From an uncultured Bacilli bacterium (GTDB lineage: Bacteria; Bacillota_I; Bacilli_A; RF39; UBA660), in NCBI GenBank assembly GCA_944373145.1, contig CALWAL010000002.1:86282-150281 (forward strand): a stretch of 64,000 bases of DNA, read 5' to 3'. The notes beneath the pieces were generated by a model that worked only from the letters and a program-made list of their open reading frames with translations, was not told where the DNA came from and searched no databases. The translations under genes were made by a program, and so were the position numbers. This document shows positions 4,817-64,000 of the stretch, piece after piece; position 1 is the first letter of the stretch; each line of letters starts with the position of its first letter.

Positions 4817-5889
4817 TTAACATAATTATTTAAAGGTTGTGTACGATATTTTAATTCATCCATATCACAAGTTGGAACAAAACCTGGTCGTGCATTAATA
4901 ACATCTGGAAGTCGATTTACAATTGTAGCGCAAGTAAGTTCTACTGTTGCGGGACGATTTACAACGATTGTTGTATTAGGTTCACCCATAATTGTCCATT
5001 CATTTTTATCAAATTCATCAGGCCCGTATACTTTCCCAATACATTCTGATTCTATAATAATTCCTTCTTTTGTCTCTGTTGTTACAATAGCACTCATACC
5101 AGTGGCATTACCAGCCGGAATTGTCATACCTAAAGTTGAAGATTCAATGTCATTTGAATATGTTGTTGGAACACATTTTTGGTTTTGATCAATAACAGTT
5201 AAACCTAATTTACGAGCCAACCAACCATTAACATTCCACATATATGAAGGAGAATAAGTTCCACCATTTATTAAAGCATTACGTTTTTCAGTACTCATGC
5301 GATCAATACTTGCAATTTTATTATCAAAATCTTCTAATGATAAACCGGATCCATGAGCTTGTGCTAAAGCAATTCCGTAGTCTTCTACATTGTAAGAAGA
5401 ACTCCCTTTAATCTTTGTGATATTATGTGTTGATCCGGCAATTGCACTTATTAATTCTCCCCAATAAATATCTTGATATCCAGAGCCTGTAATTGTACAG
5501 TTATTTTGAATAGCTAAATCATTAATTTTATTAGTTAATACAGGATTAGAGTTATATGAGAAGAAAGCTTCTTCACAGGTAGTGATAGCATTAATACCCA
5601 ATTTAGCGCATAACATTAAAGCTTCTTCAACGTCGCTTAATAAACTCATTGTTGTAACAATACAAACATCTGGTTTTAATTCATTTAGTAATTCTTCAGC
5701 TTCACTAGTTGATCTAACAATTACCCCTTTAGGTTCACTTCCAATAATTTCACCGATATCTTTTCCTATTACATTAGGATTAATATCAATAGCCCCAACA
5801 ATTTCAGCTCCTTTTTCAAATACATATCTCATGGTATACACTGACATTTTTCCAGTACCATATTGAACGACACGAATTCTATTTTCCAT
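4813..5889 (-). CDS. NAD(P)-dependent amine dehydrogenase / DapB-like oxidoreductase family protein (cf. 2,4-diaminopentanoate dehydrogenase)
   Basis: N-terminal Rossmann VVQYGTGKMSVYTMRY; ~358 aa with similarity in organisation to dihydrodipicolinate-reductase-like enzymes. Confidence 0.5.
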   Translation of the reverse strand: MENRIRVVQYGTGKMSVYTMRYVFEKGAEIVGAIDINPNVIGKDIGEIIGSEPKGVIVRSTSEAEELLNELKPDVCIVTTMSLLSDVEEALMLCAKLGINAITTCEEAFFSYNSNPVLTNKINDLAIQNNCTITGSGYQDIYWGELISAIAGSTHNITKIKGSSSYNVEDYGIALAQAHGSGLSLEDFDNKIASIDRMSTEKRNALINGGTYSPSYMWNVNGWLARKLGLTVIDQNQKCVPTTYSNDIESSTLGMTIPAGNATGMSAIVTTETKEGIIIESECIGKVYGPDEFDKNEWTIMGEPNTTIVVNRPATVELTCATIVNRLPDVINARPGFVPTCDMDELKYRTQPLNNYVK

Positions 5890-10873: not shown

Positions 10874-12148
10874 CTATTTTATATTAATTGTGTCTTTATC
10901 CATGATAATTTCTGCGTTATAGAAACCATTTAATGCTTTGTACATTTCATTGATGTCCCATGCTCCTATTGTTTCGTTAGCGGAATGCATAGCTAATTGT
11001 GGTAAACCAATATCAATTGATGGAATACTGATGTGACTATTTGAAATTCCTCCTAAAGTTTTGCCACATTGCATATCAGAGCGACAAGTAAAATCTTGAT
11101 ACATAGCCCCTGCTTTTTCGCAAATACCTTTAAAAATAGTAGAACTTAAGGCATCAGTTGTATAATTAGTATGGTGCTTAATAACAACTCCCCTATTTAG
11201 TAAAACATGGTTAGTAGGATCACTTTTTTCTGGCGCATTGGGATGAAGCGCATGCCCATTATCAGCACTTATCATAAAACTATTGTTTAAAGTTGTATAA
11301 AAATTAGTGTTTAAAGCTTCACAAATCCTTGTTAGAGTATCAAGTAAAAAATGTGAATCAGCGCCTTGGTAAGTTAAACTCCCTATTTCTTCATTATTAA
11401 AAGCACAAAAAACGGCTGAAGTTTTATTATAAGAGTTAGTAAAACTTTCTAACGAAATAAAAGTAGTTGCTAAATTATCAAAACGTGGCCCTAAAATAAA
11501 TTCTTTATTGGCTCCAATATATTTAGCTTTATCACGATTATACAAATATAAATCATAATCGCATATTTTTTCAAAAATAATTCCTTCTTTTTTTAGCTTA
11601 TTTTCAATAAGTTTTTGTAATGACATATTTTGTAAAGAAATAATTGGCGACATATCTATTTGCTCATTAAGTTTAATTCCCTCGTTTACCTCCCTATTAA
11701 TATGAATAGCTTGACTTGGAATAATTGCTAAGTCTTCATCAAAGTTAATTAAATGAGCATGATATCCCCTTTTATCTTCTAAAAATATTCTTCCAGCAAT
11801 TGATAAAGGCCGATCAAGCCATGAATAATTGATTGTGCCTCCATAACGTTCAACATTGAGTTTATTAACTCCTTCTACACTCATATCGGCATTTACTTTA
11901 ATTTTAAAACTAGGCGAGTCTAAATGGCTTGCGACAATATTAAAACCATTATTATTTCGCAATTTAAAAGCAATAATAGAAGAATCGTTGCGAATTACAA
12001 AATAATTGTTACCTTCTTTAAGTTTATGCCAATCTTCATTTTCATAAATTTGAATAAAACCTTTTTGGCATAAATAATTTTTAATATTTTGTACTCCATA
12101 ATAAGCATTAGGCGTTGAATTAATAAAGTTCATTAAGTTTTCGTTCAT
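10874..12148 (-). CDS. M18-family aminopeptidase (aspartyl aminopeptidase-like)
   Basis: 424 aa; overall M18 architecture with metal-ligand His/Asp/Glu-containing blocks (…SHLDSP…, …DNGH…, …HSANE…). Confidence 0.75.
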   Translation of the reverse strand: MNENLMNFINSTPNAYYGVQNIKNYLCQKGFIQIYENEDWHKLKEGNNYFVIRNDSSIIAFKLRNNNGFNIVASHLDSPSFKIKVNADMSVEGVNKLNVERYGGTINYSWLDRPLSIAGRIFLEDKRGYHAHLINFDEDLAIIPSQAIHINREVNEGIKLNEQIDMSPIISLQNMSLQKLIENKLKKEGIIFEKICDYDLYLYNRDKAKYIGANKEFILGPRFDNLATTFISLESFTNSYNKTSAVFCAFNNEEIGSLTYQGADSHFLLDTLTRICEALNTNFYTTLNNSFMISADNGHALHPNAPEKSDPTNHVLLNRGVVIKHHTNYTTDALSSTIFKGICEKAGAMYQDFTCRSDMQCGKTLGGISNSHISIPSIDIGLPQLAMHSANETIGAWDINEMYKALNGFYNAEIIMDKDTINIK

Positions 12149-12252
12149 ACTTATATACCTCCAATTTTAATTATATTATAGCATATTATTTTAAAATATT
12201 ATTTTTATTATATGATATAATTTATGTAGATTTTGAAGTTAAAGGTGATTAT

Positions 12253-21199: not shown

Positions 21200-22543
21200 A
21201 TGCCTGAAAGAATAATACCGCATAGTAAAGAAGCTGAACAATCAGTTATTGGATCGATGTTTTTAACTAAAAAGGCTTTGCAAAAAGCTTTAGAAATGTT
21301 AATGCCCGATGATTTTTATTTAGATGCTCACAACAAGATATTTACTTGTATAAAAACAATTGATGATCAAAAAAGACCAGTTGATTTAACTACTGTTTCT
21401 GAGGAATTAAGTGTTAGAGGGTGGTTAAAACAAGTAGGTGATATTGAGTATTTAGCGGAAATTATCAATAATGTTCCAACGACAGCTAATATAGATGAAT
21501 ATATTAAAATTGTATCGGAAAAGTCGTTACTTCGTCAATTAATTGATGAAGCTACAGAAATTGTCCAAGAAAGTTATAAGATTGGGGGAAATATTGGCGA
21601 TTTTTTATATGCTTCACAAAAGAAAATTGCTGATGTATCACAGGGATTAAGAACAGTCGAATTTAAACCTATTCAAACTGTTTTAACAAAGACACAATCA
21701 GATTTAGAAGCTTTAGCATCCAATAAGGGCGATATTACTGGCATTCCAACGGGATATTATGATTTAGATAAAATTACATCTGGGTTTCATCCTCATGAAT
21801 TGATTATTATTGCGGCTCGTCCAGGTATGGGAAAAACGGCAATTGCTCTTAATATGGTAACTAACATTGCAATAAATGCAAAAAAAACAGTAGCCTTATT
21901 TAATATGGAAATGGGAGCGGAACAATTAGTTACAAGAATGCTATCGTCAGTTGGTCAAATTGATGGTAATAAGTTAAAAACAGGTAATTTAGAACATAAT
22001 GATTGGAAGCGGATTAATGAAGCTATTAGCCGACTTTCAGATACTAAAATATTTATTGATGATACGGCAGGTCAGACCGTAGCGGAAATTCGTTCTAAAT
22101 GCCGTCGTTTAAAGAGCTCTCCAAATGGTCTTGATATTGTTGTGATTGATTATTTAACCTTAATTCAAAGTGCAAATAAGGGTGGCTCAACTGGGCAAAA
22201 TAGACAGCAAGAAGTAGCTGATATTTCAAGAGCTTTAAAAACAATGGCTATGGAATTAGACGTTCCTGTTATTGCGTTATCTCAATTATCACGTGGTATT
22301 GAACAACGTACTGATAAAAAACCTATGCTAAGTGATTTAAGAGAATCAGGAGCAATAGAGCAAGATGCTGATATTGTCGCGTTTTTGCACTGTACTGACG
22401 AAGAAAGAGAAAAGGAAGATAGTTTAATGGAATTTGTTATTAGAAAACATCGTAACGGTCCATTAATGGATATCCCACTTATTTTTAAGCGTGCAACAAG
22501 TAGTTTTGTTAATGTTGCCACCAATGGTATATCTGAGGAATAG
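21200..22543 (+). CDS. dnaB: Replicative DNA helicase (DnaB-type; dnaC in B. subtilis nomenclature)
   Basis: N-terminal PHSKEAEQSVIGSM, Walker A ARPGMGKTA, RecA-like core. Confidence 0.95.
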   Translation: MPERIIPHSKEAEQSVIGSMFLTKKALQKALEMLMPDDFYLDAHNKIFTCIKTIDDQKRPVDLTTVSEELSVRGWLKQVGDIEYLAEIINNVPTTANIDEYIKIVSEKSLLRQLIDEATEIVQESYKIGGNIGDFLYASQKKIADVSQGLRTVEFKPIQTVLTKTQSDLEALASNKGDITGIPTGYYDLDKITSGFHPHELIIIAARPGMGKTAIALNMVTNIAINAKKTVALFNMEMGAEQLVTRMLSSVGQIDGNKLKTGNLEHNDWKRINEAISRLSDTKIFIDDTAGQTVAEIRSKCRRLKSSPNGLDIVVIDYLTLIQSANKGGSTGQNRQQEVADISRALKTMAMELDVPVIALSQLSRGIEQRTDKKPMLSDLRESGAIEQDADIVAFLHCTDEEREKEDSLMEFVIRKHRNGPLMDIPLIFKRATSSFVNVATNGISEE

Positions 22544-29795: not shown

Positions 29796-29898
29796 TTAAT
29801 TCTAATCTTTTTAGTTGCATTTATTAAAAATATTTGTTACAATATGATGGTATCAAATTACTATGACTTATTGAAGTCATGGCGGAAGGAGAGAGAAA

Positions 29899-34607: not shown

Positions 34608-34668
34608 CATGAAAACCTTTACAAATTTTGTCGGTTATATTATAATAAGCGCTTAAAGAGTGATTATT

Positions 34669-36657
34669 ATGGATGAATTAAATCGTATACAAATAGCGGC
34701 AGATTTATTAGATGAGGTGTTAAATCGCTGTGAGGAAAAAAAATTTGAAGATAGAATAACAGTAATTTATAATTTTTTGTTAGATACTGTTAATGATAAT
34801 TCGGGATTTAATAGAGAACTTTGTTTAGCGCACGGTATATCTAATCAATTGTTAAGAACTTATAAAAAAGATTCGTGGTTTATTATTTTATTAGATAGTT
34901 ATGAATATCTTAAATATTTAAAAGAAAAAAACAGTTTGTCATCTGAAGAAACGATTGTGTTAACAGAATTAGATAAATTGGAGTGTACTTTTACAAATTT
35001 ATTTGAATATTTTATGAGCTCAACTAATGAAGGTAAAATAAGAATTCTAATAACTAAATATTATGAATATATTGCTAAAGGCGAAGATTATATAAAGATA
35101 GTTGAAGATTATAATTATGAAAATCAAACACCATACCGCAATGTTTTAACAGATTACATTTTTGATATTACTGTAATGGATGAATTAGCTTCTTTATTTT
35201 CTTATTTAGACGACAAGTACCAAGGGCAAATAAATCGTGTAGTTGGCGTATCCGATGAAGAAGATTCTTTAACACCTGATGAATGCGATGAAATTAACTT
35301 TGAAGATGTTGTTTCAGATGAAGCTAACTATGAGGATGAAGACGAAGAAGATTCTGAATATAGTCAAGCTGTTGATGAATTATTTGAAGATCATGAAGAA
35401 GAAGTACATCAAATTTTGGAGAACTTTAAGGCTGATTTACATAGTAGGGTTATGGATATTTTAGAAAAATATTATGATGATAAATTTGAGTGTGATGATT
35501 TTATTGGCTTTTTAATGAGTTTTGTTTATACTTCTTTACTTAAATATAAAGGTACTCATCTTAAAGAAGAACAATCAATTCTCGAATTATTAGCAAACCC
35601 AGATGTTGATTATCCTTTAATTGTTGAATCTTTTTATAGTAGTCGTGAATATGTTTTGTCGTCATTAGATGTTTTTACAAAATATTATTATAGGTATTGT
35701 TGCGATATTTTAACGCATCGTGATGATTTAGGCAACTTTGAGATATCAAGAGTATCTTTAATGGATAAAAACTTCCCTAAATTAAGAGTATCCTTTCAAG
35801 GAAAACTTATTTCTAATCCTTTTAATCATATTTATGATAAATTTTTTATGAGTGTTAAAAAAATAAATAACGACAATTACATAGTAGAAATTCTTAATAT
35901 GTTACTTGAAGGCGAAAATATAGATGAAATTTTTAAATTATTGGGAATTAATAGCGATTTTGCATATCATAGATTGCAGATGATAAGGTATTTTACTCGT
36001 ATATTTATAGAAAATATGTACAATTCTAGTTTAAATGACATTGAGTCTGAACCTTTTGATGTTTTAATGAAAATTATGTATGATGATATTAGCGTAGAAA
36101 ATATTGTTAGACAATTTAAAAATCACGGAGAAATAATATTAAGAGGCTATGAATGTGGAATTAATAAAAGTATTGCTTCAAGAAAAGATAGCATACGTCA
36201 TTTACAGTACTCTAATGTGTTACATAATTTGGTAACAGTTGATCCAATGCTTATTGGCGATGCTATTTATTATCGCGCTTTCAACGATTCTAAATTATTT
36301 CAATATATTGAAGCGAATGGAATAGAATGGACAATTAGCTATTTGAAAAGTTTAGAAATTGATGAAGCTCAAGAATTTATGAAAGAAGTAATTGTTACTA
36401 TTTATTGTCATACTAGTGAATTAACTAAAATGGATTCTATTGACCAAACAATATCTGTTTTGTGTGAAAACGATGATAACGATTTACTACCTTATATTAG
36501 CTTCGCTTTAGGTAATAACCACTTGCTATCACAGTTACTTTTAAAATATTATGATTATGAAGTAAAGGAAGATTTTCCACCTAGTTATGAAGAACGTGTG
36601 GTTAAAAATCCAAAAATAAAACAAAAATTATATCCGAATATTGATAATAAAGAATAA
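34669..36657 (+). CDS. Large hypothetical cytoplasmic protein with an acidic D/E-rich segment
   Basis: ~660-aa ORF; its own promoter-like element (ttacaa-16-tataat) follows the upstream terminator; no recognised domain; residues ~195-245 are a highly acidic tract. Confidence 0.6.
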   Translation: MDELNRIQIAADLLDEVLNRCEEKKFEDRITVIYNFLLDTVNDNSGFNRELCLAHGISNQLLRTYKKDSWFIILLDSYEYLKYLKEKNSLSSEETIVLTELDKLECTFTNLFEYFMSSTNEGKIRILITKYYEYIAKGEDYIKIVEDYNYENQTPYRNVLTDYIFDITVMDELASLFSYLDDKYQGQINRVVGVSDEEDSLTPDECDEINFEDVVSDEANYEDEDEEDSEYSQAVDELFEDHEEEVHQILENFKADLHSRVMDILEKYYDDKFECDDFIGFLMSFVYTSLLKYKGTHLKEEQSILELLANPDVDYPLIVESFYSSREYVLSSLDVFTKYYYRYCCDILTHRDDLGNFEISRVSLMDKNFPKLRVSFQGKLISNPFNHIYDKFFMSVKKINNDNYIVEILNMLLEGENIDEIFKLLGINSDFAYHRLQMIRYFTRIFIENMYNSSLNDIESEPFDVLMKIMYDDISVENIVRQFKNHGEIILRGYECGINKSIASRKDSIRHLQYSNVLHNLVTVDPMLIGDAIYYRAFNDSKLFQYIEANGIEWTISYLKSLEIDEAQEFMKEVIVTIYCHTSELTKMDSIDQTISVLCENDDNDLLPYISFALGNNHLLSQLLLKYYDYEVKEDFPPSYEERVVKNPKIKQKLYPNIDNKE

Positions 36658-36751
36658 TCTACTAATAAAATTGAAGATTATTTTTTTCATAGATTTATGA
36701 TATTAAATGTGTTAAAATATATATGTAAACAATTAGAAATAGGTGAAAAAG

Positions 36752-37537
36752 ATGGGAAAGATTATAGCATTTGTTAATCAAAAAGGTGGAGTTGGTAAAA
36801 CAACTTCTAGCATCAATTTGGCAGCCTCATTAGGTTTACTTGGTAAAAAAACTCTTTTAGTTGATTTGGATCCACAAGGTAATGCGACTACAGGAGTAGG
36901 AATAGTTAAAAGCGAAGTTAAAGATAGTGTTTATGAACTATTAACGGAAAAAACAGATATTGAGGATGTTATTATAAAAACACGATTTAAAAATTTATAT
37001 ACAATTCCAGCCTCTATTAATTTAGCGGGTGTTGATATGGAATTGATGGAAATAGCTCGTAGTAATAAGGATTTTATTGCTCAGCTTCAATTAAAGAAAG
37101 CTTTGGGAAAAGTAACGGACTTATTCGACTATATTATTTTAGATTGCCCGCCTTCTTTAGGTTTAATTACTACTAATGCTTTAGCTAGTGCTAATTCGGT
37201 AATTATTCCCGTACAATGTGAATTTTTCGCACTTGAAGGAATTATGCAACTTCTAAATTCAATAATGATTGCGCAAAAAAAATTAAATCCAGAATTAGTT
37301 ATTGAAGGGGTATTGTTGACTATGCTGGATAATCGCACTAACTTAGGATTAGAAGTTGTAGAGGAAATAAAAAGTTATTTTAAAGAAAAAGTTTATGATA
37401 CTATTATCCCACGTTTAGTTAGGTTATCAGAAGCGCCAAGTCATGGTAAACCAATTCATGCATATGATCCTAAAAGTCGTGGGACAGAAGCATATTTAAA
37501 TTTAGCAAAAGAGGTGATTGAGAGAAATGGAAATTAA
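36752..37537 (+). CDS. soj: Chromosome partitioning ATPase ParA/Soj
   Basis: Deviant Walker A NQKGGVGKTT; ParA family length; followed by an overlapping parB. Confidence 0.9.
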   Translation: MGKIIAFVNQKGGVGKTTSSINLAASLGLLGKKTLLVDLDPQGNATTGVGIVKSEVKDSVYELLTEKTDIEDVIIKTRFKNLYTIPASINLAGVDMELMEIARSNKDFIAQLQLKKALGKVTDLFDYIILDCPPSLGLITTNALASANSVIIPVQCEFFALEGIMQLLNSIMIAQKKLNPELVIEGVLLTMLDNRTNLGLEVVEEIKSYFKEKVYDTIIPRLVRLSEAPSHGKPIHAYDPKSRGTEAYLNLAKEVIERNGN

Positions 37538-38405
37538 AAAAAGAGCCTTAGGTAGAGGTTTGGAACAATTATTTAACACGGAAAACCTTGATTTAGATAG
37601 CTTTGAAAAGAGTGTTTATGAGAGTGCAACTAGTGAAGAAATTATTGATATTAATTTGTCTGAATTACGAGCTAATCCATATCAACCTCGTAAAGTATTT
37701 AATGATGAGTCGTTAAAAGAATTGTCTGATTCGATTAAAGAACACGGAGTTTTTCAACCAATTATTGTAAAGAAAAGTATTAAAGGGTATGAAATTATAG
37801 CTGGAGAAAGAAGAGTTAGGGCTAGTAAATTAGCTGGTCTTGAGACCATTCCAGCTATTGTTCGTAATTTAAATGATGAACAAATGATGGAAATAGCTCT
37901 TTTAGAAAACTTACAAAGGGAGGATTTATCAGCAATTGAAGAAGCTACCGCTTATAAAACGATGATTGAACGTTTAAATTTGACACAAGAAGAGTTGAGT
38001 GTTAAGGTGGGAAAAAGCAGAAGTCATATTACTAATTTGTTAGGCCTTTTGCGCTTACCATCAGAAGTTCAAGATATGGTTACCAATAATCAATTAAGTA
38101 TGGCTCACGCACGTGTATTATCAAAGTGGGAAGATGACCAAGAAATTATTGATACTGCACACAAAATTATAGAGGATAAAATTCCAGTACGTAAATTAGA
38201 ATTTCAAGCAACGACTATTAATAAAAAAAATAAAGTAGAAAAAATTAAGACTGTAACTAAAGTAGACGAATATAAATACGCTGAAGATTTGTTGCGTGAT
38301 AAATTAGATACAAAAGTTCGTATTCGCGAAAATAAAATTGAAATCAGTTTTACTAATGTAGCTGATTTAAATCGTATTTTGGATACAATGGATGTTAAGG
38401 GATAA
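37527..38405 (+). CDS. spo0J: Chromosome partitioning protein ParB/Spo0J
   Basis: GRGL N-terminus, ParB box GERRVRAS, HTH region; overlaps the parA 3' end. Confidence 0.9.
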   Translation: MEIKKRALGRGLEQLFNTENLDLDSFEKSVYESATSEEIIDINLSELRANPYQPRKVFNDESLKELSDSIKEHGVFQPIIVKKSIKGYEIIAGERRVRASKLAGLETIPAIVRNLNDEQMMEIALLENLQREDLSAIEEATAYKTMIERLNLTQEELSVKVGKSRSHITNLLGLLRLPSEVQDMVTNNQLSMAHARVLSKWEDDQEIIDTAHKIIEDKIPVRKLEFQATTINKKNKVEKIKTVTKVDEYKYAEDLLRDKLDTKVRIRENKIEISFTNVADLNRILDTMDVKG

Positions 38406-46013: not shown

Positions 46014-46595
46014 TTGAATATAGGTATTAAATATGAACAAAATGTGTTAGTATATAACGAGGGAAGCGGTGGTAGTGTGGATGATACTTTAAAACGTATG
46101 ATAAAAATATATGGTATTAGAGAATATGATTGGATGAATTTTAAAATTACGCGTGATAATCCCTTAACTTATCACCATATAAAAAAGGAGGAACACGGAG
46201 GCAAAAGGACTATTGCTAATGGCGCTCCGTTGACTAAATTAGCGCACGTTTATATTCATCAAATAGAGCGTGATGATCAAAGGAATTTTGTTTATTTAAG
46301 TAAACTACTTCAAAAAATTAATAATGGAAAAAATCCTCCTACAAAAAAACAATTACAAGCCATTAATGCAGTTTTAAAAAATTATGAGAGTAAAAATGAT
46401 AATGTTTTAAGAAGAAGAATTTTATCTTTAAATTTGAATTATTATGCTTTATCAATCACAGGAGTAAAGGATATATATAGTCCTACTAATGTGAGAATGG
46501 TTATGCAGGCAGGAATTAATCCTAGGAGTTGGTTAGAAAATAGCTCAACGAATGATAAAAAAGTTAAAAAAAAGAAAAAACGAAAGAAAAAGTAA
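46014..46595 (+). CDS. Standalone HNH endonuclease-domain protein with a poly-Lys C-terminal tail (start codon uncertain)
   Basis: HNH core …LTYHHIKKEEHGG…NGAPL…HVYIHQ; C-terminus KKVKKKKKRKKK; own terminator downstream (46598-46626). Confidence 0.65.
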   Translation: MNIGIKYEQNVLVYNEGSGGSVDDTLKRMIKIYGIREYDWMNFKITRDNPLTYHHIKKEEHGGKRTIANGAPLTKLAHVYIHQIERDDQRNFVYLSKLLQKINNGKNPPTKKQLQAINAVLKNYESKNDNVLRRRILSLNLNYYALSITGVKDIYSPTNVRMVMQAGINPRSWLENSSTNDKKVKKKKKRKKK

Positions 46596-46764
46596 AAAAG
46601 TGTTGATTTTTCGGCACTTTTTTAGTATACTTTTGTATGTGTGGCATGCAAAGATGTGTGAGGTTGCCGATACACCAGGTTAAGTTGTAAGACAAATAAG
46701 CTTAAGAATCGGGTTTTTACACGGAGCAAGTCTATACAAGATATAGGCGAAGGGAGGACATAAA
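46596..46764 (+). promoter_or_regulatory. S10 operon leader region (terminator of the upstream gene plus the 5' UTR of rpsJ)
   Basis: ~170-nt untranslated region between the HNH gene and rpsJ containing a hairpin with T-run at 46598-46626 and the RBS gaagggagg. Confidence 0.5.
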
Positions 46765-60490: not shown

Positions 60491-60847
60491 ATGGCTTATA
60501 GAAAATTAGGACGTACAAATAAACATAGAAGAAGTATGCTTGCTAACTTGACTAAAGCAGTTATTAATAATGAAAGAATTGAAACGACTGAAACAAGAGC
60601 TAAAGAAGTTCGTAAAGCAGTAGATAAAATGATTTCTTATGGTAAAGATGGCTCATTAGTTGCAAGAAGAAAAGCATTAGCATTTTTACATAATGATGTA
60701 GATACTGTTAAAAAAGTATTTGATGATTTAGCACCACGTTACGCTAATCGTAATGGTGGTTATACTAGAATTTTAAAATTAAATGAACGTCGTGGTGACG
60801 ATGCATTAACAGTAATTTTAGAATTAGTTGAAGGAGATGCCCAATAA
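60491..60847 (+). CDS. rplQ: 50S ribosomal protein L17
   Basis: MAYRKLGR…HRRSML.NL L17 signature. Confidence 0.95.
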
Positions 60848-60861
60848 GCATCTCTTTTTTT
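60833..60861 (+). terminator. Intrinsic terminator ending the alpha/rplQ operon
   Basis: Perfect 7-bp stem gagatgc/gcatctc, followed by T7; the rplQ stop codon lies in the loop. Confidence 0.7.
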
Positions 60862-60892: not shown

Positions 60893-60901
60893 TGTTATAA
60901 T
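60893..60901 (+). promoter_or_regulatory. Extended -10 promoter element (TGtTATAAT) upstream of the LbH-acetyltransferase/agr-like gene block
   Basis: tgttataat 16 nt upstream of the ATG at 60917; weak -35 candidates (ttgatg / ttgcat) at non-ideal spacing. Confidence 0.4.
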
Positions 60902-60916
60902 TGTTAAGGTGATAAT

Positions 60917-61510
60917 ATGTATAGCATAATTGATGAAAAAACAACTTATATTGATGATGAAGTTCAAATTGATGATGGTTGTATTATCTATCCAAATACA
61001 ACAATTGTTGGAAAAACTATAATAGGCTCAAACACAATTATTTATCCAAGTACATTTATAAAAGACTCTATTATTGGATCTGATAATATTATATATACTT
61101 CTTATATAATAGAAAGTCATATAGGTAATAAAAATAATATAGGTCCATATGCTCATATAAGGCCAGGAAATATAATAGGTAATGAAAATAGAATAGGCTC
61201 TTTTGTTGAAATAAAAAATAGTAAACTTACCAATAGCGTAAAAATACCTCATTTAAGCTATGTAGGTGATACAACTATTAAAGATTGTGTAAATGTAGGT
61301 GCAGGTGTAAAAATTGCTAATTATGATGGAAAAAATAAGAATAATACATATATAGAGGAAGGTACTTTTATAGGATGCAATTCTGTATTAGTAGCTCCAG
61401 TTGTATTACATAAAAATAGTTTTATAGCTGCAGGATCAACAATTACTAAAGATGTACCGCAAGGTGCCCTAGCAATCGCAAGAGAGAGGCAAATTAATAA
61501 AGAAAGATAA
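60917..61510 (+). CDS. Standalone left-handed beta-helix acetyltransferase equivalent to the GlmU C-terminal (GlcN-1-P N-acetyltransferase) domain
   Basis: Hexapeptide repeats; blocks GPYAHIRPGN, GSFVEIKNSKL, HLSYVGD, NVGAGVKIANYDGKNK, LVAPV, GALAIARERQINKE parallel the GlmU acetyltransferase domain; no uridyltransferase domain. Confidence 0.75.
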   Translation: MYSIIDEKTTYIDDEVQIDDGCIIYPNTTIVGKTIIGSNTIIYPSTFIKDSIIGSDNIIYTSYIIESHIGNKNNIGPYAHIRPGNIIGNENRIGSFVEIKNSKLTNSVKIPHLSYVGDTTIKDCVNVGAGVKIANYDGKNKNNTYIEEGTFIGCNSVLVAPVVLHKNSFIAAGSTITKDVPQGALAIARERQINKER

Positions 61511-61549
61511 TTTGCTTTTTTATTATATTAAAAGAGTAGGGAGGAAAAA

Positions 61550-62245
61550 ATGAATATAGTTATTTGTGAAGATGATAGTGGTTGTAGAAAAGCAGAAATT
61601 AAAATTGTTGATGAATATATGAAAGAAAATAATATTGAGTATAAAATATTTGAATATGATGATTATAATCAACAATTTAAAAATATTATGAAAAGTAAGT
61701 GTAAGAAAATTTATATTCTTGATATTGAAACACCATCAGCATCAGGGATAGATATAGCTCGTGATATTAGAAAGTATGATAGAGACAGTATCATAATATT
61801 TGTGACAGGACATGATGAGTATGGAAAATTAGTTTTAAAGAGAAATATTATGTGTTTATCTTTTATTAATAAATTTGAAGATTTAAAATTTGATTTACGT
61901 AATTCTTTGAAAGATGCTTGTTACTACTTAAATTATGATAAAGCAGTGAAGTTAAACGATAGTAATGTTGACTATAATATTAGAATTAGCAAAATTCTTT
62001 ATATAACTAGAGATAGTATTGAAAGAAAAACAGTAATTAAATTGGAAAATGCAGAATATAGGTTAAATTTAAGTTTAAAGAAAGTTAAAGATGCTTTAGG
62101 CGATAATTTTGTTAGGACTCATAAAAGTTGTTATGTTAATAAGAATAGAGTTGAAAAAATTAATTATAAAAATAAACTTATTACATTTGATAATGGTCTT
62201 GAAATAGATTTGTTATCAAACTTGTATAAAAAGGAGATGTGTTAG
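61550..62245 (+). CDS. agrA: AgrA-like response regulator (receiver + LytTR DNA-binding domain)
   Basis: N-terminal ICEDD acidic pocket, phospho-Asp context YILDIETP, C-terminal LytTR (…FVRTHKSCYVNKNRVEKI…). Confidence 0.8.
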   Translation: MNIVICEDDSGCRKAEIKIVDEYMKENNIEYKIFEYDDYNQQFKNIMKSKCKKIYILDIETPSASGIDIARDIRKYDRDSIIIFVTGHDEYGKLVLKRNIMCLSFINKFEDLKFDLRNSLKDACYYLNYDKAVKLNDSNVDYNIRISKILYITRDSIERKTVIKLENAEYRLNLSLKKVKDALGDNFVRTHKSCYVNKNRVEKINYKNKLITFDNGLEIDLLSNLYKKEMC

Positions 62246-63541
62246 ATGAAGTATTGGGCAGCGTTTGCAATTATTAATTTATGTTCAGTTATTAGCATGT
62301 ATTTTATTAGTAACGTTAAAATTAATTTAAAAGATAAAAAAATGTATTGCAGCTATTTATTAAGCACCATATTTTTAATAATAAATTTTGAAATATCATT
62401 AAATGTATTTAAAATAATTATTAATTGTTTATTGTATGTTGTTTTAGCTCGTTATTTAATTAATAAAGATTTAAAAAATTCGTGCATTTTAGGTATAATT
62501 GTAATATTTATTAATATTTTTTCGGAGCTAATTTTTACTTTATTTGCATTGTCTTTTTTGAAACCAGTACTATTTGTAGATAGCGCTCCTTATATTGTAT
62601 TAATTCAAAATACAATTATAGGAATAATTACGGTGTTACTTAGTTTAATGTTTAAAAAATGTAATTTTTATGAAATTGTATTAAAAAAATTTAATAAAAT
62701 AGGTGTTAAACAAATCATAATTTTTTCCTTATTTATGGTGGTTCTATTCAACTTTTTTTTATTTCTTACATGCTTTATTTCTGAGGGTTTATTTAATAAC
62801 CCGATTTTATTAGGCGTAGGGTCTTCTATAAGTCTGTTTAGTGTTGCTTTGGTATATTCTTATTTAACGACTAATAACAAATATGTTGAGGTAATGGAAA
62901 AATATAGTGTTTCTTTAGATAGTATAAAATTATATGAGGATATAATTGAAAATAACCGAGTTAATAATCATGAAGTACGTAATCAATTTTTGATGTTACG
63001 GGGTATGAGTAAAAATAAAAAATTAAATACCTATATAGATTCAATTTTAGACAAAAATATTAGTACTAATGAAGATTTACTAAATAAAGTTATAAAAATA
63101 CCTAGTGGTGGGTTAAGAGGATTAATATATACTAAATTAATTCAAATGCAGGATAATAATATAAATTATGAAATTTATGTTGATAAAAGAGTCAACTCGC
63201 GTAAATTTAGTAAAATAGATTCCAATACTATGATTGATATTTGTAAAATTATTGGGGTTTTTATTGATAATGCTATTGAATGTGTATCTAATTTAAAGAA
63301 AAAAAATATCACTATAGAAATTTATGTTGAAAGAAACGATGTTGTCGTTTGTATTACTAATAACTTTGAAGGAAAAATCAATTTAGATAAATTTGGAACA
63401 GTTAATTATACAACAAAGGGTAATGGCCGTGGATATGGTCTAAGATTAGTTAAAGAAATTTTAAGTCAAAATAACAGGTTAAAAAATTCACGTGAGTTGT
63501 ATGAAGATAATTTTACACAAAATTTAAAAATAAAAATGTAG
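62246..63541 (+). CDS. agrC: AgrC-like (HPK10-type) sensor histidine kinase
   Basis: ~200-aa N-terminal polytopic (6-TM) sensor domain; H-box RVNNHEVRNQ; N-box GVFIDNAIE; G-box GNGRGYGL; ORF starts right after the agrA stop. Confidence 0.8.
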   Translation: MKYWAAFAIINLCSVISMYFISNVKINLKDKKMYCSYLLSTIFLIINFEISLNVFKIIINCLLYVVLARYLINKDLKNSCILGIIVIFINIFSELIFTLFALSFLKPVLFVDSAPYIVLIQNTIIGIITVLLSLMFKKCNFYEIVLKKFNKIGVKQIIIFSLFMVVLFNFFLFLTCFISEGLFNNPILLGVGSSISLFSVALVYSYLTTNNKYVEVMEKYSVSLDSIKLYEDIIENNRVNNHEVRNQFLMLRGMSKNKKLNTYIDSILDKNISTNEDLLNKVIKIPSGGLRGLIYTKLIQMQDNNINYEIYVDKRVNSRKFSKIDSNTMIDICKIIGVFIDNAIECVSNLKKKNITIEIYVERNDVVVCITNNFEGKINLDKFGTVNYTTKGNGRGYGLRLVKEILSQNNRLKNSRELYEDNFTQNLKIKM

Positions 63542-63560
63542 ATATATTTCTACATTTTTT
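63537..63560. terminator. Bidirectional intrinsic terminator between convergent agrC (+) and agrD (-)
   Basis: Stem tgtaga/tctaca with loop tatatt; A-run upstream (aaaaataaaaa) and T6 downstream. Confidence 0.55.
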
Positions 63561-63589
63561 GATTGATTATATGATTAATTTAAAAGTAA

Positions 63590-63715
63590 TTATTTGATTA
63601 ATGATTGAGGACATTTTGGTTCTTCGAACAACATAAACAAGACGCATCCCATTTCAGTTGTATTAGCTACAAATGAACCAACTTTTGCTAATAAATCAAC
63701 AAAAAGCCCTAACAT
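63590..63715 (-). CDS. agrD: AgrD-like autoinducing-peptide precursor (41 aa; not in the ORF track)
   Basis: Minus-strand ORF MLGLFVDLLAKVGSFVANTTEMGCVLFMLFEEPKCPQSLIK with RBS aaaggag 5 nt upstream. It has an amphipathic N-terminal leader, a single central Cys followed by hydrophobic residues, and a C-terminal EEPK acidic-proline recognition motif, as in staphylococcal and clostridial AgrD. It lies immediately downstream of, and overlaps, agrB. Confidence 0.65.
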   Translation of the reverse strand: MLGLFVDLLAKVGSFVANTTEMGCVLFMLFEEPKCPQSLIK

Positions 63716-64000
63716 AACTTCTCCTTTCTACCATATTTATCTATATATTTTAAATAATTATTATATGGCAAATTAAATAATTTATATGTGAATGGGGATA
63801 TAAGTATATTAATTAAAATTAAACTAAACAATAAGGAATTAGCTACTATTTGACTATCAACGAAAAATGAAGTGATTATATATATTGTAGCCACAATAGT
63901 AGCTAGCACCTTATGTTTTTTCCTAATTTTAGGACTGATTATTGGCCTTTTTTCAGTATCGGCAGGGCTATATCTATAAACATGTAAAATTAGTATAATT
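63709..64000 (-). CDS. agrB: AgrB-like membrane endopeptidase, C-terminal part (5' end beyond the window)
   Basis: Frame open from the window edge: …HVYRYSPADTEKRPIISPKIRKKHKVLATIVATIYIITSFF…KLC*. Aligns with the conserved S. aureus AgrB segment [34 protein letters not shown]. Hydrophobic helices. The ORF-track entry 63709-63909 is an internal GTG of this longer frame. Confidence 0.65.
   Translation of the reverse strand, partial: IILILHVYRYSPADTEKRPIISPKIRKKHKVLATIVATIYIITSFFVDSQIVANSLLFSLILINILISPFTYKLFNLPYNNYLKYIDKYGRKEKLC

Follow-up and report, generated by a model that had tools for sequence, protein, structure and literature searches.

A probable agr-type quorum-sensing locus in uncultured gut Bacilli, with two convergent operons, a candidate cold-shock gene output, and several pherotypes

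The 64,000-nt stretch of DNA analyzed here (the window) comes from an uncultured member of the Bacilli, a low-GC (30%), small-genome gut bacterium. Near its end, directly behind the ribosomal protein gene rplQ, a LytTR response regulator gene (agrA) and an HPK10-type histidine kinase gene (agrC) on the plus strand face an agrD-agrB pair on the minus strand. We consider it quite probable that this locus works as a peptide quorum-sensing system of the agr type, with two convergent operons that share a terminator, with the neighboring cold-shock-domain gene (csp) as its output, and with at least four pherotypes within the species. An earlier note on this DNA had proposed an agr-type module in this place, and open reading frame (ORF) and domain calls uphold it. 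They also confirm the map that the note had drawn, in ORF coordinates, strands, and order, from the rplQ terminator through an extended -10 element, a stand-alone acetyltransferase gene (AcT), the regulator gene, and the kinase gene to the opposing agrD-agrB pair.

The circuit that we propose would work as follows. The first operon, on the plus strand, would start from the extended -10 element just past the rplQ terminator and provide AcT, AgrA, and AgrC constitutively. The second, on the minus strand, would encode AgrB, a membrane cysteine peptidase with H76 and C83 as its catalytic pair, and the overlapping AgrD. AgrB would cut off the acidic tail of AgrD and cyclize the peptide at Cys24 into a thiolactone with the ring CVLFM or CVLFML. 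One A-tract/hairpin/T-tract terminator would end both operons and insulate each from the other. The secreted peptide would activate AgrC, leading to phosphorylation of AgrA, and phosphorylated AgrA would bind 21-bp-spaced pairs of the half-site nnWTTYRnnCAWAA in the agrB-csp spacer. A strong pair there would drive csp and a weak pair of the same geometry faces agrBD, a P2/P3-like arrangement in which a CspA-family RNA chaperone would be the divergent output, taking the place of RNAIII. The peptide chemistry, the transcription units, and the regulation throughout this circuit are read from what is described below, namely, which genes are present and how they are conserved, the hairpins and repeats, the geometry of the promoters, and the way in which alleles co-vary.

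Components and pherotypes of the locus

The upstream boundary of the block is rplQ (60491..60847, plus strand), which encodes ribosomal protein L17 (Pfam Ribosomal_L17, called on the identical gene of contig L001) and is the final gene of the alpha operon. It is followed on the same strand by AcT (60917..61510, 197 amino acids [aa]), agrA (61550..62245), and agrC (62246..63541, 431 aa), and on the minus strand by agrD (63590..63715), encoding the 41-aa autoinducing-peptide precursor MLGLFVDLLAKVGSFVANTTEMGCVLFMLFEEPKCPQSLIK, and agrB (63709..64000), of which the window holds the last 96 codons. The genes are tightly packed: 39 nt separate AcT from agrA, the TAG stop of agrA directly abuts the ATG of agrC with a gap of zero, and the start of agrD overlaps the stop of agrB by 7 nt. 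The rest of the locus was read from L001, an 89-kb metagenome contig that is identical to the window's last 4,000 bases and extends beyond them (window position = L001 position + 52,245). In L001, agrB is intact (11464-12090, 208 aa), and the fear that it might be a truncated pseudogene, which the earlier note had named as a possible refutation, falls away. Past agrB lie a 287-bp spacer, csp on the opposite strand, a GH25 muramidase gene, hpf, and secA. The exact kinase protein was found on 19 metagenome contigs, and the locus is unchanged in them.

The part of AgrB encoded in the window matches Pfam AgrB with 37.6 bits against a cut-off of 23, and in the complete protein H76 and C83, seven residues apart, are invariant in 69 relatives. 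We take these two residues to be the counterparts of H77 and C84 of Staphylococcus aureus AgrB; a search of PDB sequences turned up no relative of AgrB with a solved structure. AgrD matches NCBIfam TIGR04223 (20.8 bits, cut-off of 19) and has the parts of an autoinducing-peptide precursor: its leader is amphipathic, Cys24 opens a hydrophobic ring region that varies, and the acidic tail is conserved. Among 65 AgrD orthologues the Cys is invariant, the 4 to 6 hydrophobic residues that follow it are hypervariable, the DEPECPKSLIK tail is kept, and the leader is amphipathic.

AgrA combines a receiver domain (Pfam Response_reg, 32.1 bits) with a LytTR domain (52.3 bits); its acidic pocket is formed by E7, D8, and D9, and D58 is the predicted phospho-acceptor. 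AgrC opens with a polytopic sensor (about 62246-62860, aa 1-205) of 6 to 7 hydrophobic segments by hydropathy, followed by an HPK10-type core with a GHKL ATPase domain (Pfam HATPase_c_5, 48.8 bits), H242 in the motif NNHEVRNQ, the N box DNAIE, and the G box GNGRGYGL. H242, N342, G396, and G398 are invariant in 26 kinase homologues. By homology alone the pair would be classed only as LytTR and HPK10 types, and the kinase is best regarded as the same type as staphylococcal AgrC, not as its orthologue. We assign the system to agr because the His and Cys of AgrB are kept, because AgrD has the expected form, and because signal and receptor co-vary within one species, the last being the most telling.

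This co-variation emerged from three contigs of the same species (L087, L088, and L093), which are 99 to 100% identical to L001 in rplQ, AcT, agrA, the agrB-csp spacer, csp, and the GH25 gene (99.6 to 99.9% nucleotide identity in agrA between pherotypes) and 98 to 99% identical at the nucleotide level in agrB. Against these near-identical surroundings, identity to L001 is 56 to 59% over the first 600 nt of agrC, 84 to 90% in its kinase half, and 82 to 88% in agrD. When L001 and L087 were compared in 100-nt bins, identity was 99 to 100% up to 62245, 55 to 63% over 62246-62845, 83 to 95% up to about 63745, and then 97 to 100%, with a sharp break at window position 62246, where agrA stops and agrC starts; L088 and L093 gave the same bin pattern. 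The variable cassette (62246..63720) thus takes in the whole of agrC, the junction, and agrD, between a conserved agrA and a conserved agrB. The sensors of these conspecific alleles share 56 to 63% of their nucleotides and 29 to 48% of their amino acids, and the kinase cores are 81 to 90% identical as proteins. The AgrD ring regions differ accordingly, reading CVLFMLFEEPK in the window and L001 (allele I), CIMWIIADEPE in L087 (allele II), CLYFFVLDEPK in L093 (allele III), and CVLYFFLDEPK in L088 (allele IV), from which the species is read as having at least four agrC-sensor/agrD alleles, that is, pherotypes. Because a change of AgrC sensor goes with a change of AgrD ring in these contigs, the kinase and its regulator are tied to AgrD. 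A hypervariable agrB-D-C region likewise defines four groups in staphylococci (PMC10482373).

Convergent operons and their conservation

To place the layout in its lineage, a profile of kinase homologues was used to collect 80 loci from bacterial genomes taken one per species, and these loci were annotated with the window's own proteins. All 80 come from uncultured gut metagenome-assembled genomes, most of them labeled Bacilli, Tenericutes, Erysipelotrichaceae, or Candidatus Coprosoma; the few labeled otherwise (e.g., Muribaculaceae, Bacteroidaceae, and Clostridia) look like binning errors. The relatives include three complete chromosomes, of 1.34 to 1.54 Mb. The regulator gene lies directly upstream of the kinase gene in 75 of 75 loci, agrD-agrB converges on the kinase in 73 of the 74 species-level loci long enough to be informative, csp follows agrB in 67 loci (i.e., wherever the contig reaches that far), and rplQ is just upstream in 23, counts that overstate the number of independent events, since related species share ancestry. 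The convergent arrangement is the norm of this lineage and no oddity of one genome. The earlier note had called the architecture noncanonical, which is right insofar as it differs from the single agrBDCA operon of staphylococci, listeriae, and lactobacilli but wrong as a description of a peculiar genome. The sole exception in layout is L009 (5206-7055), which has lost agrBD along with the sensor half of agrC and retains AcT, the regulator, the kinase core, and csp, together with a strong pair of the direct repeats described below (score, 25.8); it may be a signal-independent remnant. In three other loci (L026, L034, and L068), the stretch from agrA to agrD holds two agrC-like kinase genes in tandem.

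The stop codons of agrC and agrD are 48 nt apart, and between the two genes lies a hairpin (63532..63559) whose 11-bp stem takes in the agrC stop codon, with AAAAAUAAAAA before it and UUUUUUG behind it. Since the A tract is 5' of the stem and the T tract 3' of it, a transcript from either strand would read as a hairpin and then a U run. The predicted folds are stable in both directions (-10.6 kcal/mol on the plus strand and -10.2 kcal/mol on the minus strand; z scores of -3.7 and -5.7), and none of 200 shuffles was as stable. In 61 of 65 species the junction folds at a z score below -2 (mean, -4.6), and A-rich and T-rich flanks are present in 51 of the 65. Since the hairpin persists through 47 different 5' arms, it is the structure and not the sequence that is conserved, which points to selection for termination, or insulation, in both directions. 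The bidirectional terminator that the earlier note had suspected is thus supported by folds on both strands and by its conservation in 51 to 61 of 65 species.

On the other side of the block, rplQ ends in an intrinsic terminator (60830..60858, plus strand) whose stem holds the rplQ stop codon, with a U run behind it (-13.4 kcal/mol; z score, -4.07; 0 of 200 shuffles as stable); its 3' arm, GCATCT, and the T run are kept after rplQ in relatives. Behind it stands the extended -10 element TGTTATAAT (60893..60901, plus strand), the putative promoter of AcT-agrA-agrC. The element TGnTATAAT occurs between the rplQ terminator and AcT in all five AcT-bearing loci examined (L001, L007, L008, L009, and L048), the gaps between AcT and agrA in such loci are 0 to 39 nt long and free of terminators, and relatives without AcT have an equivalent TGnTAnnAT in front of agrA. 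Because the extended -10 is conserved and the gaps are short and terminator-free, AcT is likely cotranscribed with agrAC from about 60893, as the earlier note had held. A small hairpin in the AcT-agrA spacer (61511..61540, plus strand; -8.5 kcal/mol; z score, -3.2) has no U tract and abuts the Shine-Dalgarno sequence of agrA, with a similar sequence in L009, and it does not look like a terminator. A scan of the window and its extension with the matrix for LytTR boxes found none upstream of AcT or agrA, and since none precede it, we infer that the AcT-agrA-agrC operon is expressed constitutively. All of these promoter and terminator assignments are based on folding statistics and conservation in relatives. 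A simple consensus scan was set aside, as its promoter-like sites were at chance level (28 versus 31.2 expected) and it overlooked both hairpins owing to its G-C rule.

AcT itself encodes a left-handed beta-helix protein (Hexapep) that corresponds over its whole length to the acetyltransferase half of GlmU. Because GlmU models match it only at positions 250-443 of 447 (NCBIfam, 248 bits against a cut-off of 450), AcT is this C-terminal half standing alone; the N-terminal nucleotidyltransferase (uridyltransferase) domain of GlmU is not part of it. Its homologues all stand alone, with 197 to 205 aa, and are widespread in uncultured Bacilli. Proteins of this family may supply one of the two halves of a split GlmU; the idea of a partner half close by was dropped, as no nucleotidyltransferase gene was found in the window. 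In a more distant member of the uncultured Bacilli, L092 (2587-10599), the gene order is rplQ-x-SDR-AcT-ecfA-ecfA-ecfT-truA-x-rplM-rpsI, with AcT behind rplQ and no agr genes, suggesting that the position of AcT is ancestral and that the agr genes joined it later. AcT is best seen as an ancestral neighbor of rplQ and a passenger, outside the signaling module.

Direct repeats in the agrB-csp spacer

In S. aureus, AgrA binds paired direct repeats upstream of the divergent promoters P2 and P3, and direct repeats with a 21-bp period, at a fixed distance from a -10 element that lacks a good -35, are the hallmark of LytTR regulators (PMC4227749). We compared the agrB-csp spacers of 66 distinct species. 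In them, 11-mers repeated at exactly 21 bp numbered 86, versus about 15 in shuffles, a roughly six-fold excess, and no other spacing gave a comparable peak. Iterative refinement yielded the half-site nnWTTYRnnCAWAA. When scored with the resulting position weight matrix, which was trained on the same spacers and leaves only the 21-bp spacing and the -10 offset as independent tests, a csp-facing pair exceeded the 99th percentile of shuffled spacers in 54 of 66 spacers and an agrB-facing pair exceeded the threshold in 12 of 66. In 47 of 51 csp-facing pairs, the proximal half-site starts 40 or 41 nt away from a -10-like TAnnWT, which is often TG-extended. The same offset of 40 to 41 nt is seen in 13 of the 17 agrB-facing pairs that score 7 or more, this species included.

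The spacer of the species itself (L001 12091-12377, window-equivalent 64336-64622) holds two oppositely oriented, 21-bp-spaced repeat pairs. The csp-facing pair (12203-12237, window-equivalent 64448-64482) scores 22.1 and stands 40 to 41 nt from the extended -10 element TGCTATCAT, whose -10 is at L001 12265-12270; the agrB-facing pair (12148-12182) is weak, with a score of 9.1, and has the extended -10 element TGCTATGAT at 41 nt, its -10 being at L001 12115-12120. Within the 70 kb of the window and its extension, the csp-facing pair is the only one scoring 14 or more, and the maximum in 30 shuffles was 18.0. In the flanks of relatives, 824 kb in all, the agrB-csp spacer accounts for 50 of the 57 pairs scoring 16 or more, and most of the other seven adjoin it, masked by over-called ORF starts. 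The earlier note had advised looking for paired LytTR repeats both upstream of agrB and upstream of 60917; repeats of this type were found in the former place, beyond the window's end, and none in the latter. In a single case, L084, a pair scoring 20.4 (5041-5075) lies just upstream of the regulator gene and points away from it.

These repeats suggest that phosphorylated AgrA acts at the spacer and that the system probably switches on the neighboring csp gene. Two natural cases support csp as the target. In L065 (8092-8380) and L079 (8025-8310), a second copy of csp stands behind a terminator and has its own box pair with a -10 at offset 40, and the L009 locus, though it has lost agrBD, keeps the regulator gene, its box pair, and csp. 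In the subclade of the window (L001, L089, L090, L009, and L094), csp appears to have no promoter besides the one with the LytTR boxes; a second one was not seen there. The csp leader of this subclade opens with the hairpin TCCGC...GCGGA, the stem of which varies from species to species. Most relatives have a second, csp-proximal extended -10. Between it and the LytTR-box promoter, most relatives (e.g., L011 8260-8300 and L007 8245-8262) also show a conserved box, (T)TGTCGAAATTT(TG), which is absent from the window's own subclade. A wider proposal would be that csp is, throughout the lineage, the main conserved gene on which the agr regulator acts directly, so that cell density would act globally and posttranscriptionally, and that the convergent layout holds agrC and agrD together as one exchangeable cassette; we put this forward tentatively, at slightly less than even confidence.

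Alternative readings, known systems, and the wider window

Several observations weigh against reading this locus as an agr system with csp as its output, and they have to be set against the alternatives that they favor. The top NCBIfam model for the regulator is AgrA, at only 58.9 bits against a cut-off of 400, and the kinase reaches 38 against the cut-off of 500 of the staphylococcal AgrC equivalog; in a PDB search, the best solved homologue of the regulator was ComE (4cbv, 1.9e-8), with the LytTR domain of AgrA following at 7e-4, and by homology alone the regulator would be about as close to ComE as to AgrA. Such values would speak for a ComDE- or bacteriocin-type system in which the kinase and regulator sense some other, linear peptide and stand beside agrBD by accident, a placement outside agr that the earlier note had itself named as a possible refutation. 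We nevertheless regard it as extremely unlikely. Between rplQ and secA in L001 there is no gene for a double-glycine peptide or an ABC exporter, and agrD is the only small peptide gene; the regulator-kinase pair adjoins agrDB in nearly every informative species, and the joint shift of the AgrC sensor and the AgrD ring between otherwise near-identical contigs ties the pair to AgrD. The terminator at the junction is also less than ideal, for its AT-rich stem has only two G-C pairs, and at these folding energies complete termination is unlikely and some readthrough likely. Together with the closeness of the two operon ends, this leaves room for convergent transcription as a control device in its own right, in which antisense readthrough between agrAC and agrDB or polymerase collisions would tune the autoinduction loop. 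The earlier note had raised such control, and we found no support for it: a hairpin with A and T tracts that is kept while its stem varies argues for insulation, and the junction showed neither a conserved antisense promoter nor any other such element. We therefore think this role improbable.

The regulatory half of the proposal meets objections of its own. At a score of 9.1, the agrB-facing pair would be inconspicuous in a scan of the whole genome, and L089 and L090, the species nearest to this one, lack such a pair, so that autoinduction of agrBD in this species is uncertain. The boxes could be bound by a different LytTR regulator encoded elsewhere in the genome. The repeats might also be a feature of the csp promoter, serving another regulator or acting as an UP-like element, with the agr regulon lying elsewhere. 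Upstream regions of csp genes are often complex, most relatives have the second extended -10 and the TGTCGAAATTT box, and the AgrA sites are predictions from a matrix trained on these very spacers. The repeats nonetheless show the hallmark geometry of LytTR sites (PMC4227749), the same motif with the same 40-41-nt offset faces agrB in a subset of species that includes this one, the motif is almost confined to the agrB-csp spacer, and L009 has kept regulator and boxes together after losing agrBD. On balance we judge a role apart from AgrA unlikely, though it deserves to be taken seriously. Much less probable is a working part for AcT in quorum sensing, for instance, in modifying the peptide or in coupling the supply of cell wall precursors to cell density. 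AcT is probably cotranscribed with agrA, 39 nt downstream, and the linkage is kept in L007, L008, L009, L048, L087-L091, L093, and L094. AcT stands next to the agr locus, however, in only 4 of the 80 relatives from the genome collection; it closely matches the acetyltransferase half of GlmU, and in L092 it sits behind rplQ in the company of ecf, truA, and ribosomal protein genes with no agr genes at all. The membership in the module that the earlier note had implied for AcT is not sustained, since it is an ancestral rplQ neighbor that is missing from most relatives' agr loci.

With an agr-type system as the preferred reading, the locus can be compared to that of S. aureus. The four components are the same in both: the AgrB peptidase carries the His and Cys, AgrD has its Cys and an acidic tail, the kinase is polytopic and of the HPK10 type, and the regulator has a LytTR domain. 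Both loci also have paired direct repeats in a divergent spacer beside agrB (PMC4227749) and an intraspecific hypervariable region with four signal/receptor alleles (PMC10482373). Sequence similarity between the two systems is low, below the NCBIfam equivalog cut-offs for AgrA and AgrC. S. aureus makes a single agrBDCA transcript, whereas here agrA-agrC faces agrD-agrB in two convergent operons, and unlike in S. aureus, agrAC appears to be constitutive and outside the control of the boxes. The variable region of S. aureus takes in part of agrB, while here agrC and agrD vary and agrB hardly does, and the divergent output in S. aureus is RNAIII, for which csp would be the candidate here. Split agr systems of clostridia (agrBD plus agrCA in Clostridium acetobutylicum and agr2 in Clostridioides difficile) likewise consist of separate transcription units with no known RNAIII equivalent (PMC12312760, PMC3754575). 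The accounts consulted describe separate operons or a reversed order and are silent on convergence or a shared terminator; in the locus described here, moreover, the regulator precedes the kinase. The 'agrACDB' of C. difficile R20291 (PMC3754575) was considered as a convergent precedent and rejected, since it is described there as a single transcript with its gene order reversed, and a recent primer writes agrB2D2C2A2 (PMC12312760). The streptococcal ComCDE and Blp systems share the HPK10 kinase and a LytTR regulator acting on paired direct repeats, and they include the closest solved homologue of the regulator, ComE. Their signal is a linear peptide of the double-glycine type that leaves the cell through an ABC transporter, in contrast to the AgrB and AgrD found here, which come with a kinase sensor that co-varies with the peptide. 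The components and the logic are those of agr; what differs or is new for this group is the wiring, the candidate csp output, and the pherotypes in a gut commensal.

In the literature we found no description of a convergent agrAC/agrDB layout, although the gene-order survey of Wuster and Babu (2008) was outside our coverage and an earlier description is possible; nor did we find agr in uncultured Bacilli of the RF39 type or a link between csp and agr. According to the recent primer, no RNAIII equivalents have been found outside staphylococci (PMC12312760). Direct agr outputs outside staphylococci are poorly known, and csp behind a LytTR-box promoter is a concrete, testable candidate that is conserved in dozens of species; if the proposal is true, a protein, the Csp RNA chaperone, would play the part that RNAIII plays in staphylococci. 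The retention of peptide quorum sensing in the core genome, beside ribosomal protein operons and in genomes of 1.3 to 1.5 Mb, implies importance in the gut, and the four pherotypes would extend the staphylococcal picture of strain-to-strain signal interference to gut commensals. The convergent two-operon design would be a natural example of agr rewiring in which the receptor is constitutive and the output inducible, induction of signal production being uncertain.

A search with Rfam gave no match in the agr locus or in the agrB-csp spacer, which has no RNAIII. In the whole window, only the S10-Clostridia ribosomal leader and the L31-Firmicutes leader (46643-46750 and 29861-29891) scored above the gathering threshold. 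Two sizeable ORFs, at 34660-36657 (665 aa) and 46014-46595 (193 aa), have no NCBIfam match at 1e-10. The remainder of the window is origin-proximal core chromosome, with mnmE (178-1530), dnaB (21200-22543), and parA/parB-noc (36743-38405); mscS, a gene for an AbgT-family transporter, ychF, and gpsA also lie within 178-46000, and the S10, spc, and alpha operons come next.

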